Shown here one piece after another: positions 3,057-15,565 of a stretch of DNA of 64,000 nucleotides. The number at the start of each line of letters is the position of its first letter. The first letter of the stretch is position 1. Origin of the DNA: a virus (Duplodnaviria > Caudoviricetes). The position numbers and the translations under genes are program-made. The DNA lies in IMG/VR virus record IMGVR_UViG_3300011114_000269, positions 130-64,129 of that record; one strand, given 5' to 3'. The notes below the pieces were generated by a model. The model made no database searches. It saw nothing but the letters and a program-made list of their open reading frames with translations, and was not told the DNA's origin.

Positions 3057-3329
3057 ATGCAAACCTACCGCTACATTCAAGACCCATCCCATGGCTGGAT
3101 AGAAGTGCCATTGGAGGAATTGGAAAAACACCATCTTAGCTACAAGATCAGCCGCTATTCCTACATGAACCCCAAGACAGGGAAAGCTTACCTAGAGGAA
3201 GACTGCGATGCCGCCATTTTCATTAAGAAACTGAAGGATACCGATACGCCATACGACATTAAAGAAGTGTATCAAGAGAACACTTTTGTCCGCAATTTGC
3301 CCAGCTTTGAGCATGGGTTTGGAGCATAA
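3057..3329 (+). CDS. Conserved phage hypothetical protein (DPSHGW...YLEEDCD)
   Basis: Motif pattern and RBS. Confidence 0.7.
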   Translation: MQTYRYIQDPSHGWIEVPLEELEKHHLSYKISRYSYMNPKTGKAYLEEDCDAAIFIKKLKDTDTPYDIKEVYQENTFVRNLPSFEHGFGA

Positions 3330-3331
3330 AA

Positions 3332-3691
3332 ATGGGTTACTTTTCTAAGACTTGCGCCAAGACGCATATGCCGATTGTTGTCGAAGCATTGGATTTGCCA
3401 CGATTAAACATAGTCGTGGCCCTGCTACCTAGTGGCAGGAAAATTGAGGGCTCATACGATGGGTATGGGCGCGTCAATGGCATTGACCTAATGGACGCAT
3501 GGCCTAAAGTAAAGATGGTTTTAAAAGACCATTACGCAGACGAGTCCTACGACCAACTAGGAAACTCAGGCGATGAACTAGCCCAAGGGTACTTTATGGA
3601 TAGGAAATTCTTACACCATTGCCTACTGAAAGGCCCGTTTAAAAACCGCGCAGAGTACATCCGCGCATTCAAAAAATACGCTAACTGGTAA
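3332..3691 (+). CDS. Hypothetical protein (MGYFS...GSYDGYGRV)
   Basis: GGAG RBS; operon packing. Confidence 0.7.
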   Translation: MGYFSKTCAKTHMPIVVEALDLPRLNIVVALLPSGRKIEGSYDGYGRVNGIDLMDAWPKVKMVLKDHYADESYDQLGNSGDELAQGYFMDRKFLHHCLLKGPFKNRAEYIRAFKKYANW

Positions 3692-13314: not shown

Positions 13315-13371
13315 ATGTCTAAATATGCACGACGGGTGGACGCAAAACAAATGTATGCTATCATTGCGTAA
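13315..13371 (+). pseudogene. Relic 5' end of the nuclease gene (MSKYARRVDAKQ...)
   Basis: Similar to MKYANRVDRNQ at 13928; AGGAG RBS. Confidence 0.6.
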
Positions 13372-13388: not shown

Positions 13389-13931
13389 ATGAAAACACTT
13401 CAAGATTTTGACTTGTCAACTAGGACTGGTAGACACAAAGCAAGAAAAAATGGCCTTGATGTGCCAAAACAAAAACCCGGAACAAAGCAACCTGATTTTT
13501 GGTCACTTGTTGAAAAAAAAGGCCAAGATGAATGCTGGCTTTGGCTTGGGAAGTTGAATCAATGGGGCTATGGTCGCATCAGACATGGCGGCATTCAAGC
13601 AATGGCGCATAGAGTGGCATATCAATTGCAAACTGAAAAAAGCATTGATGGGTTGATTGCAATGCACATTTGCGACAATCCAGCGTGTTGCAACCCAAAT
13701 CACATAACTCTTGGCACTCATGCCGACAATCAAAAAGACAAATTTAACAAAAATCGCCAAGCCAAAGGGGAAATAAATGGACAATCAATTCTCACAGAAG
13801 AACAAGTAATTGAAGCAAGAAAGTTGTATGTTGAAACAAAAACAACTTACAAAAAACTTGCAGAAAAATTTGGTGTTAGCAGAGATACCATGCAAAAAGC
13901 AATACGTAAAATCTATTGGAAACATGTATGA
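13389..13931 (+). CDS. Free-standing HNH homing endonuclease with C-terminal HTH
   Basis: CWLW..GYG..AHRVAY..MHICDNPACCNPNH..GTHADNQKD. Confidence 0.92.
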   Translation: MKTLQDFDLSTRTGRHKARKNGLDVPKQKPGTKQPDFWSLVEKKGQDECWLWLGKLNQWGYGRIRHGGIQAMAHRVAYQLQTEKSIDGLIAMHICDNPACCNPNHITLGTHADNQKDKFNKNRQAKGEINGQSILTEEQVIEARKLYVETKTTYKKLAEKFGVSRDTMQKAIRKIYWKHV

Positions 13932-14233
13932 AATATGCAAACAGGGTTGACAGAAACCAAGGGGAAATTGTTGCTGCGCTGCGGGCTTACGGAGCTACAG
14001 TCAAAGTGGTTACCCAAGGCGGTGGGATACCTGACCTACTGGTGGGATACACAAATCCTGAGAGTCTTACTAAGTACACCCTGCTGCTGGAGGTAAAGGA
14101 CGGGAACAAGCCGCCGTCTGCCCGGAAACTTACCCCGGCAGAAGAAAAGTTCTTTTTTGAGTGGACGGGTGGGATGCTGGCTATCGTGGAAAGTGCCGAG
14201 GAAGCGGTAGATATTTTGAAGCATTGCCGTTAG
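13928..14233 (+). CDS. VRR-NUC / resolvase-like PD-(D/E)XK nuclease
   Basis: GIPDLLVGY, LLEVKDG, KLTPAE. Confidence 0.8.
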   Translation: MKYANRVDRNQGEIVAALRAYGATVKVVTQGGGIPDLLVGYTNPESLTKYTLLLEVKDGNKPPSARKLTPAEEKFFFEWTGGMLAIVESAEEAVDILKHCR

Positions 14234-14273
14234 CGTGTACAATTTATCTGTCTCCTTGGCCTGCAAAGGTCTT

Positions 14274-14300
14274 ACCCCTCGCTAGTCGGGGGGTTCTTTT
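14274..14300 (+). terminator. Rho-independent terminator
   Basis: ACCCCTCG/CGGGGGGT hairpin followed by TCTTTT. Confidence 0.6.
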
Positions 14301-14304
14301 AGGA

Positions 14305-14537
14305 GCTAACACGCATGGGGATTAAGAGGCGAGGGGGTGTAGCCGCACTTCTGGAGACTCGCTGAAAGTCGCAAGGCAAACGAACAGGCGCTATGGTTAG
14401 CCAAGAGGAGTCCGGTAAGGGTTCAAATCCCGCCTTAGTCCCCAGCCGTGTTGGTGGGATGTGGCATGGCGCGAGTACGCGATCATCATCAATGCTATGG
14501 GCTGGAACGATAAGCCACGCACCCAAGCGCCACCAAC
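14305..14537 (+). ncRNA. Structured ncRNA candidate A
   Basis: GCTAACACG/CGTGTTGGT, TGGGGATTAAG/CTTAGTCCCCA and GTTGGTGG/CCACCAAC helices. Confidence 0.45.
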
Positions 14538-14546
14538 AACCTTTAT

Positions 14547-14621
14547 CGCGGAGTGGGGAAAGAGTAACCCGCATGGCTCATAACCATGAGATAGCTGGTG
14601 CGACTCCAGCCTCCGCTACCA
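14547..14621 (+). tRNA. tRNA with CAT anticodon (fMet-like, atypical)
   Basis: CGCGGAG/CTCCGCT acceptor stem, CATGG-CTCATAA-CCATG anticodon arm, GCTGG/CCAGC T-arm, encoded CCA. Confidence 0.85.
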
Positions 14622-14640
14622 AAAATATTTTTACTACTTA

Positions 14641-14669
14641 TTGCCGCAAAGCAAAAAGTTCTGTATACT
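14641..14669 (+). promoter_or_regulatory. Sigma70 promoter
   Basis: TTGCCG-17 bp-TATACT. Confidence 0.7.
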
Positions 14670-14680
14670 TACAACCGTTG

Positions 14681-14780
14681 TAGTCGTGTGCAACAGTTGA
14701 AAGCCGTTACTCATGCATTGGCCTCCATCTAGGAGGACACGACCCAGTGCAGTAGTAACGGCTTTTTTCGTTTCCGACTA
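14681..14780 (+). ncRNA. c4-like antisense RNA with adjacent complementary site
   Basis: AAAGCCGTTACT/AGTAACGGCTTT stem, inner CCTCC/GGAGG hairpin, unpaired ACACGAC complementary to GTCGTGT at 14683. Confidence 0.55.
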
Positions 14781-14798
14781 TTCCCGTCAGGGCGCGTT

Positions 14799-15110
14799 AG
14801 CTAATACGGCAGAAATCTCCGGTACCCAGATATGACCTTACCCTTGCAGTCAAGGGCCGCATCCTAAGGAAGCCGTGCGGGGCTGGCAAATGATTCAAGG
14901 CCAGCAGGAAAGAGGGTAACTAACAGATGAACGAGCGGTAAGATGGAAGCATCAGGGCGTACCGAATAAGCGCCACCCTCATAGAAACCGAATCCGGCAC
15001 ACCACCGCACTTGGGAAACCCGCCGATAGGGAATCCGGAGAACTGCCCTCAACCCCCAATACCGGGGGGTTCAGAGTAGCGGCTTCCTCTATGGCGAATC
15101 CATTAGTTTT
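14799..15110 (+). ncRNA. Large multibranch structured RNA candidate B (about 310 nt)
   Basis: Eight or more compatible helices, long-range closure and 3' U-tract; no credible ORF. Confidence 0.5.
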
Positions 15111-15214
15111 TTCCTATTGATTTTTTCCTGCGATAGAAATTATTTTCTTTATACCTGTTGTAACGTTTACCGTCCTATGTACAATGAGCGCTCCTAAACC
15201 ACTGGAGAACAGAG

Positions 15215-15565
15215 ATGACATGGAACATTTTTAAACGGATAGCTCAACTAGAGCAGCAGGTAAAAGACCTGACGGACTTTAACGGTGATAAAAGCCGATG
15301 GATTGGGCGGCTAGAGGAAAAGATAAGAAATATAGAGAACAAGCTTTTTATTCAGTCGGTGGAGCGCAATGCATTTAGCGCCGCCCCTGTACGCAGTGAG
15401 GGCAAACAGGTCTTTACTATGTCTGAGGTAGAGCAAGAGAGGGAGCGGAACCGCCAGTACCAGCGTGAGCGGTATGCAATAAGGAAGAATGATAAAGCTG
15501 CGCGTGAGAAAAAGAATGCTTACGCAAGAGCCTATTACGCCCGCACAAAAGGAGCAAAGAAATGA
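15215..15565 (+). CDS. Coiled-coil protein with basic C-terminus
   Basis: GGAG RBS; TTGTAA-16-TACAAT promoter at 15158-15185. Confidence 0.7.
   Translation: MTWNIFKRIAQLEQQVKDLTDFNGDKSRWIGRLEEKIRNIENKLFIQSVERNAFSAAPVRSEGKQVFTMSEVEQERERNRQYQRERYAIRKNDKAAREKKNAYARAYYARTKGAKK

Follow-up and report, generated by a model that had tools for sequence, protein, structure and literature searches.

Does an apparently empty gap in a phage genome encode a large structured RNA, and if so of what kind? The gap in question, ~970 nucleotides (nt) without a credible open reading frame (ORF), lies between a terminator-like hairpin and the gene at position 15215 of the window, the 64,000-nt stretch analysed here, which is nearly the whole of the 64,129-bp virus record IMGVR_UViG_3300011114_000269, judged complete. 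The window carries genes for the large terminase, portal, head and tail proteins, and its nearest cultured relatives by terminase are Pelagibacter phages, at ~54% identity. An earlier note, made by reading the letters of the window, had proposed that part of this gap is a multibranch non-coding RNA of about 310 nt closed by long-range helices. The data presented below support the interpretation that a conserved block of the gap is a plus-strand gene for a folded non-coding RNA of an undescribed family.

Conservation and fold of the block

With the proteins flanking the gap, 140 loci were gathered from viral contigs, and nhmmer searches among them located the large RNA in three further viral contigs (L003, L004 and L072). 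A pattern scan of metagenome contigs added five copies, four of them full (L145-L148) and one partial (L149). The eight full-length copies (window, L003, L004, L072 and L145-L148) were 92-99% identical over 14783-15095. The 5' limit of the block, ~14783, was set by L004, in which the DNA upstream is unrelated and a 96-amino-acid (aa) ORF with its hairpin replaces the tRNA and the small RNA. The 3' limit, ~15095, was set by L065, which holds an unrelated cassette plus an HNH gene at this place and has in common only the last ~25 nt of the block and the promoter beyond. Identity between copies was 81-94% for the small RNA beside the block, 71-96% for the upstream small ORF, 75-96% for the promoter region and, over partial lengths only, 74-91% for the downstream ORF; only the HNH gene, probably mobile, matched the block in conservation (98%). 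The GC content of the block (0.557) was the maximum within 13-17 kb. The longest ORF in the stretch has 62 aa on the minus strand at 14864-15052; in four of the eight copies a 1-nt deletion shifts its frame, and in another an 8-nt insertion does so. The indels inside the block measure 1 nt (alignment column 60), 1 nt (column 179, four of the eight copies), 8 nt, 1 nt and 7 nt (L072), and they exclude a protein-coding role. Two 20-21-nt words of the RNA retrieved no viral contig beyond L003, L004 and L072, one of them gave no match in bacterial genome contigs and hence no bacterial or prophage copy at that stringency, and a blastn search with 14250-15250 against 50,697 phage records returned tRNA matches only, in three records.

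The plus strand of the block folded at -104.5 kcal/mol compared with -94.4 +/- 4.4 for 100 dinucleotide shuffles (z -2.30), three of which folded as well, while the minus strand gave a z of -0.90. RNAalifold applied to the eight-copy alignment produced a consensus structure of 86 pairs (688 cells), in which 99.9% of cells are standard pairs and a single cell is unpaired. Compensatory double changes were present in five of the 86 pairs, a count reached in 3 of 500 column shuffles and compared with 0-1 in slid controls, and they sit in four hairpins, at 14807-14821, 14882-14905 (two pairs), 14942-14953 and 15010-15040. Four more consensus pairs switch between G-U and A-U or C-G. G-U pairs account for 37 of the 688 cells and would be A.C on the opposite strand, indicating an RNA made from the plus strand rather than a DNA structure.

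The individual elements (Table 1) vary in ways that preserve pairing. In hairpin Hc a G-C pair is replaced by A-U in L004 and a C-G pair by U-A in L003 and L148. Within the three-way element GAUG/CAUC becomes GAUA/UAUC in four of the eight copies and also in contigs of the RNA-library runs X15 and X17, the other stems of this element being invariant. The loop of Hb is CAGU in L004 as against GAGUAC. In H14 three pairs alternate G-U with A-U or C-G with U-G, and one of 96 cells is unpaired. The L072 version of H13 is 8 nt longer and re-paired, and in all this copy rebuilds two hairpins by insertions.

All 24 sequence words cited in the earlier note were found where it had placed them, and its inner hairpins CCCTTG/CAAGGG, GCTGGC/GCCAGC, GAGGGT/ACCCTC, GATG/CATC, GGCG/CGCC and AACCCCC/GGGGGTT were kept in all eight copies, two of them carrying compensatory double changes. 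The outer helices that it drew around these hairpins only lose pairs. The top two pairs of the closure AGCTAAT/ATTAGTT are unpaired in six and five of the eight copies, GGCAG/CTGCC has a C.A mismatch in four and TCTCCGG/CCGGAGA a C.C mismatch in five, in each case uncompensated (unpaired columns 15/330 in six copies, 16/322 in five, 21/265 in four and 32/256 in five). Read with the consensus model, these variable columns form pairs that are compensated or wobble. The proposed CGGC/GCCG hairpin with its GAAA loop also gives way, L072 having a different hairpin there that fits the alternative pairing of H13. Overall, 95.2% of the 544 cells of the earlier structure are paired and it contains three double changes, all in hairpins common to both models. 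All bases of the local helix CCGCA/TGCGG and of the suggested pseudoknot GCGGT/ACCGC are invariant in the copies. The description as an unclassified large phage non-coding RNA is thus upheld by the lack of an Rfam or transfer-messenger RNA (tmRNA) match, the eight copies and the compensatory and G-U pairs, whereas the proposed topology survives only in part, the long-range closure being lost in five of the eight copies.

Two haplotypes of the RNA were distinguished at 14805-14823 together with 15045-15049, a window type (window, L003 and L148) and that of L004 and L145-L147, with L072 a hybrid; they are predicted to adopt different global folds. In partition-function folding of the window sequence the earlier long-range helices had a mean pair probability of 0.80. 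In the five copies not of window type they had 0.00-0.04, and the consensus long-range helices 0.76-0.97; the consensus model is favoured as the structure common to all copies. Two tertiary contacts were considered and rejected. A kissing loop between GAUUC, in a 12-nt loop, and GAAUC, which occurs three times, was dropped since the bases are invariant or do not co-vary, L072 and L148 changing the 3' copy only. CCUAAG (14863-68) and UAUGG (15090-94), which face each other across one internal loop, are what we take to be the halves of the 11-nt GAAA-tetraloop receptor; their register clashes with the 9-bp helix, and there is no conserved GAAA tetraloop, L072 lacking the sole candidate.

Table 1. 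Positions of the RNA block, its structural elements and neighbouring features in the window.
Feature	Position	Strand	Remarks
HNH_3 homing-endonuclease gene	13389-13931	rightward	0.9 kb upstream of block
105-aa ORF	13916-14233	rightward	
Terminator-like hairpin	14274-14294		
Stem-closed RNA cassette	14303-14460	+	Complementary conserved flanks, variable interior
tRNA-Met (CAT)	14547-14621	+	ARAGORN; Rfam 51.4 bits
Sigma-70-like promoter TTGCCG-17-TATACT	14641-14669	+	9/12; kept in L063, L066, L003
Small RNA	14673-14776	+	104-nt hairpin RNA ending in U run; directly upstream of block
Class A cassette, conserved block of large RNA	14783-15095	+	~313 nt
Hairpin Ha, CGG.AG / CUCCG	14807-14821	+	Outer pair C-G <-> G-C, 3 vs 5 copies (columns 18/32)
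Hairpin Hb, CCCUUG/CAAGGG	14841-14856	+	Stem invariant; pair probability 0.96-1.00 in 8/8 copies
Core domain	14867-15088	+	RNAalifold consensus; closed by AGGAAGCCG/CGGCUUCCU (14867-75 / 15080-88)
UGCGG/CCGCA helix	14876-80 / 15005-09	+	Stacked under 9-bp AGGAAGCCG/CGGCUUCCU helix
Hairpin Hc, GCUGGC/GCCAGC	14882-14905	+	12-nt loop; two pairs with double changes
Three-way element GAGGGU/ACCCUC	14912-14980	+	Encloses GAUG/CAUC (14942-53) and GGCGU/GCGCC (14956-74)
Hairpin H13, CUU.GGA..CCC / GGG..UCC.GAG	15010-15040	+	Double change at columns 231/251
Hairpin H14, CUGC / GUAG, AACCCCC / GGGGGUU	15043-15079	+	7-nt loop
Weak 3' hairpin CUAUGG/CCA.UAG then U6	15089-15112	+	Possible terminator
Promoter-like site TTGTAA-16-TACAAT	15158-15185		Conserved; between block and ORF 15215-15565

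The slot behind the small RNA

The hairpin RNA directly upstream of the block, which the earlier note had called c4-like, was found with an nhmmer profile in 19 distinct contigs including the window. Double changes in eight of its 20 predicted pairs (nine sequences) indicate that it is a real RNA, but the likeness to c4 was not supported, since at E <= 10 neither c4 nor any other Rfam family matched except for chance-level microRNA models (E 4-6) on 14686-14779. By eye, a 7-nt segment at its 5' end pairs in addition with a segment in the interior, with co-variation in L076, L078, L083 and L065.

When the 700 nt behind the small RNA were compared by blastn across the 19 contigs, at least five unrelated cassettes of 300-450 nt were observed in this slot. 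Class A, the large RNA described above, occupies it in eight contigs (window, L003, L072 and L145-L149), class B in four (L063, L064, L066 and L084), class C in three (L065, L073 and L083), class D in three (L077, L078 and L080) and a single type in L076. Among the non-A classes covariation was tested in class D (L078 1576-1829, L077 and L080), where double changes across the three sequences were seen in 10 of the 49 pairs predicted, so that this class, too, is structured; the predicted pairs include a long-range CCCC(A)/(U)GGGG helix. The class B cassettes (L063 1936-2240, L064, L066 and L084) have a multibranch fold in which one tetraloop reads GCAA, GAGA and GUAA in three copies. Class C (L065 1900-2340, L083 3520-3970 and L073) and the L076 type (3190-3575) are ORF-free over 400-450 nt, and in L065, L083 and L076 a 176-aa-type HNH gene follows directly behind the cassette. 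The L076 cassette also holds a T-arm-like GGGTTCAAGTCC. Rfam searches of the whole loci of eight of the 11 non-class-A contigs (L063-L066, L073 and L076-L078) at E <= 1 gave nothing credible for these cassettes, and the cassette regions of L065 and L063 had no match at E <= 10, group I intron included; Rfam tRNA matches were obtained elsewhere in the loci of L073, L076 and L077. Sequence comparison thus supports the view that the class A RNA belongs to a set of structured RNAs that replace one another at a single, fixed position of an RNA-gene island made up of stem-closed cassettes, tRNAs and the small RNA, which lies in the early rightward region of this tailed aquatic phage.

Expression, proposed role and alternative explanations

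The sigma-70 promoter reported upstream in the earlier note was confirmed as a sigma-70-like site, and it is the sole candidate promoter upstream of the large RNA. Transcription of the block would then proceed by read-through from this promoter through the terminator of the small RNA, and in L004 the large RNA would be made from the transcript of the upstream ORF. The RNA probably ends near the weak 3' hairpin and U run, inferred to be a possible terminator, and, as with the RNA genes next to it, may be trimmed from a longer precursor. In L072 a 7-nt insertion gives a stronger 3' hairpin (-5.0) on the same 5' strand, and the U run after the block is interrupted in four of the eight copies. Owing to a tandem 14-nt repeat (ATTAGTTTTTTCCT / ATTGATTTTTTCCT) at 15102-15129, the segment from the RNA to the next promoter contains two U runs. 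Four RNA libraries that hold part of the stretch were compared with it. Contigs from two metatranscriptome runs of two studies, a 256-nt contig from sediment on 14804-15052 and a 160-nt contig from a lake on 14772-14930, give a weak hint of expression, and a 1,669-nt contig from an RNA-seq library of a viral fraction spans the locus. Most flanks were without cover in the RNA-library runs X16-X18, where contigs of low depth are no evidence of absence.

Between the small RNA and either the large RNA or the downstream leader no complementarity of at least 8 nt was found, save for one 8-mer deep in the ORF. With antisense pairing disfavoured in this way, and a cis leader and a replication origin disfavoured for the reasons given below, a trans-acting RNA is proposed. 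Such an RNA would act through its three-dimensional fold, either by binding or sequestering some factor of host or phage or by assembling with itself, and not as a leader or an antisense RNA. Exclusion of other roles and the analogy with GOLLD and ROOL lead us to hold a trans-acting role as binder, decoy or assembly with moderate confidence. The block itself would be an accessory, exchangeable module, an 'RNA moron'. Taken jointly, the reading of the block as a plus-strand non-coding RNA of a new family, forming an accessory module and acting in trans through its fold, is given a probability of about 0.55. More tentatively, and by likeness to the protein anti-defence genes clustered in variable early regions, the slot could serve host takeover or counter-defence as an arsenal of RNA effectors that are exchanged for one another, among which the class A RNA would be a folded decoy or a self-assembling particle like ROOL or GOLLD.

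Several observations weigh against this reading. The family is narrow, and recent lateral spread rather than selection could explain the identity of its eight full copies; a covariance-model search of 96 loci with a 237-position core brought up no additional copy. Covariation is confined to local hairpins, all long-range helices of the consensus model being invariant, namely the 9 bp of 14867-75/15080-88 (columns 79-87/300-308), the 5 bp of 14876-80/15005-09 (88-92/217-221) and the 6 bp of 14912-17/14975-80 (124-129/187-192), and the pair counts were made on the same alignment from which the structure was derived. In the window-type copies the long-range helices of the earlier note have pair probabilities of 0.59-0.87 and the 9-bp helix 0.11-0.35, so that two competing global folds are predicted for the RNA of the window itself. 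No promoter was found directly upstream of the block, which is preceded by the strong terminator-like small RNA, and the local fold of the 3' hairpin is weak, at -1.5 kcal/mol in four copies. The contigs from RNA libraries give neither strand nor ends and may reflect DNA carry-over.

Among the alternatives, it is unlikely that the block is selfish or relic DNA, that is, a mobile-element remnant or passenger (for instance an intron-like element lacking an ORF, or cargo carried along in homing-endonuclease traffic) without phage function, whose copies are alike through recent transfer. High identity amid diverged flanks, the HNH_3 gene 0.9 kb upstream, 98% identical in L003 and L004, the HNH gene directly behind class C cassettes and the swapping of cassettes at the locus would all be expected of such an element. 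However, L072 carries the block and the HNH query was without match on its contig, no group I or group II intron model matched at E <= 10, neither an exon context nor an empty-site/filled-site pair was found, and the compensatory and G-U-preserving changes indicate selection on the RNA fold. A mobile cassette can still encode a functional RNA, and to that extent this explanation overlaps with the favoured one.

A cis-acting leader is also improbable. The block would here be a riboswitch-like or attenuator element in the 5' untranslated region of the gene at 15215-15565, which lies 120 nt downstream on the same strand, and the interrupted U run (four of the eight copies) and weak 3' hairpin make the required read-through plausible. 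The conserved promoter-like site intervenes between block and ORF, homologues of the ORF stand behind unrelated cassettes in classes B and C, with a whole HNH gene between the two in L065, and the block is conserved far better than the ORF (99% versus 74% in L003); it is for these reasons that we disfavour a leader, and no riboswitch family matched.

We attach little weight to the explanation that the block has no function and is a GC-rich spacer with a chance fold, conserved through the close kinship of the copies. The modest z of -2.30, with three of 100 shuffles folding as well, and the small number of variable columns in eight near-identical copies are compatible with it, but no other non-mobile part of the locus is conserved as well as the block, its changes include five pair-keeping double changes with only one of 688 cells unpaired, and in L072 two hairpins that contain insertions are re-formed. 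A replication origin or primer RNA, the other possibility raised in the earlier note, according to which the structured stretch would start phage DNA replication as DNA or as an RNA primer, is very improbable: the block lies ~1.5 kb from the divergence of leftward replication/recombination and rightward genes and the cumulative GC skew turns at 12-14 kb, but the skew here tracks transcription direction, 14783-15095 contains no iterons or other repeats and no AT-rich unwinding block, an essential origin would not be swapped for unrelated cassettes between the same flanks in close relatives, and the G-U pairs are specific to the plus strand.

Known RNA families and the surrounding island

No Rfam family matched the block, either at gathering score over the whole window or at E <= 10 over 14000-15400, and this includes the GOLLD and ROOL models at both thresholds, RNase P, tmRNA and, at E <= 10, group I and group II introns. 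ARAGORN called only the tRNA and no tmRNA, so that the absence of RNase P, tmRNA and intron signatures already remarked on from the sequence was corroborated. The flanks of the block are the terminator of the small RNA and a promoter, not a split ORF or RNA gene, and no splice joints were seen in the RNA-library contigs, which cannot exclude splicing. An identity as a HEARO or OMEGA guide RNA was rejected, there being no Rfam match and the nearby HNH proteins (176-180 aa) having only HNH_3 or HNH domains. A superficial RNase P-like or group I-like look (AGGAAAG, GUUCAGAGUAG) was likewise discounted on account of wrong order and context and the lack of a model match. Among 39 window ORFs and one L065 ORF, Pfam and PHROGs searches found no RNA-related partner protein (Ro, ligase, reverse transcriptase or IscB).

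GOLLD and ROOL are described as multi-branched RNAs of phages or prophages, often near tRNA islands, with no known protein partner and unknown function, GOLLD env-38 lying downstream of a Met-tRNA and many GOLLD members exceeding 800 nt, with a universally conserved 3' domain (bioRxiv 10.1101/2024.12.08.627333). The class A RNA resembles them in context only, as a large RNA of a tailed phage, 160 nt downstream of a tRNA-Met. It differs in its length of ~313 nt, and no shared motifs were seen. ROOL is roughly 580 nt long. In the tRNA cluster of phage T4 the stable RNAs species 1 and species 2, of ~120-140 nt and with unknown function, are co-transcribed with tRNA genes, and homing-endonuclease genes occur in the same region. 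They provide a second likeness as non-tRNA RNAs co-located with phage tRNA and homing-endonuclease genes, although the T4 RNAs are much smaller and precursor processing is inferred for the present RNA. As with phage morons, a self-contained block is present, absent or exchanged between syntenic relatives, but its cargo is a structured RNA rather than a protein gene and no promoter of its own was found. For the small RNA alone, c4 of P1/P7 and the CI RNA of P4 offer a parallel in being small, highly structured and served by an early promoter; it differs in having no Rfam match at E <= 10 and no target of at least 8 nt within either the large RNA or the leader region of the gene that follows.

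A text search of the literature, which cannot find sequence and whose scope was the text of articles rather than supplements, returned no description of the class A RNA or of a multi-class slot. RNAs of this kind, large, structured and encoded by phages beside tRNA genes, are already known; the family and the multi-class slot are absent from Rfam 15. GOLLD and ROOL are among the few big natural RNA classes without a known job, only a handful of families being known, and the locus would add one of ~310 nt to the large structured phage RNAs. More unusual is the use of one genomic slot by several unrelated structured RNAs in related phages, beside tRNAs and modular cassettes. The same backbone with a different RNA constitutes a natural comparative system for asking what such RNAs do, and phage RNA-gene islands would be places for a systematic search for new structured RNAs.

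The surrounding genes are arranged in two directions. Genes for replication and recombination (Toprim, helicase, Erf and PD-(D/E)XK exonuclease) run leftward as a block, and a rightward order starts at 13389 with HNH_3, followed by the 105-aa ORF, the terminator-like hairpin, the ORF-poor gap and the gene at 15215. The tRNA-Met in the gap is 96% identical in L063 and absent from L003 and L004, and relatives carry one to three tRNAs at this locus (three in L076, two in L073 and L077). The stem-closed cassette at 14303-14460 has a 5' flank of ~18 nt and a 3' flank of ~22 nt that are complementary to each other, as in an acceptor stem with an A after it. These flanks are common to six other loci (L063, L003, L004, L066, L148 and L149), between which the interiors of 50-115 nt are wholly different, and in L148 and L066 two to three stem-closed units stand in tandem. 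Neither ARAGORN nor Rfam made a call on cassettes of this type, which may be small RNAs flanked by processing signals or tRNA-like elements. The window cassette carries a T-loop-like GGGTTCAAATCCC, and a second stem-closed unit at 14452-14545, closed by GTTGGTGG / CCACCAAC, has an interior unlike that of L003. With 98% identity in L003 and L004 amid neighbours that have diverged further, the HNH_3 gene has the look of a free-standing homing endonuclease that was inserted recently. It is bracketed by an imperfect direct repeat of 30 nt (73%) at 13321-13350 and 13931-13960.

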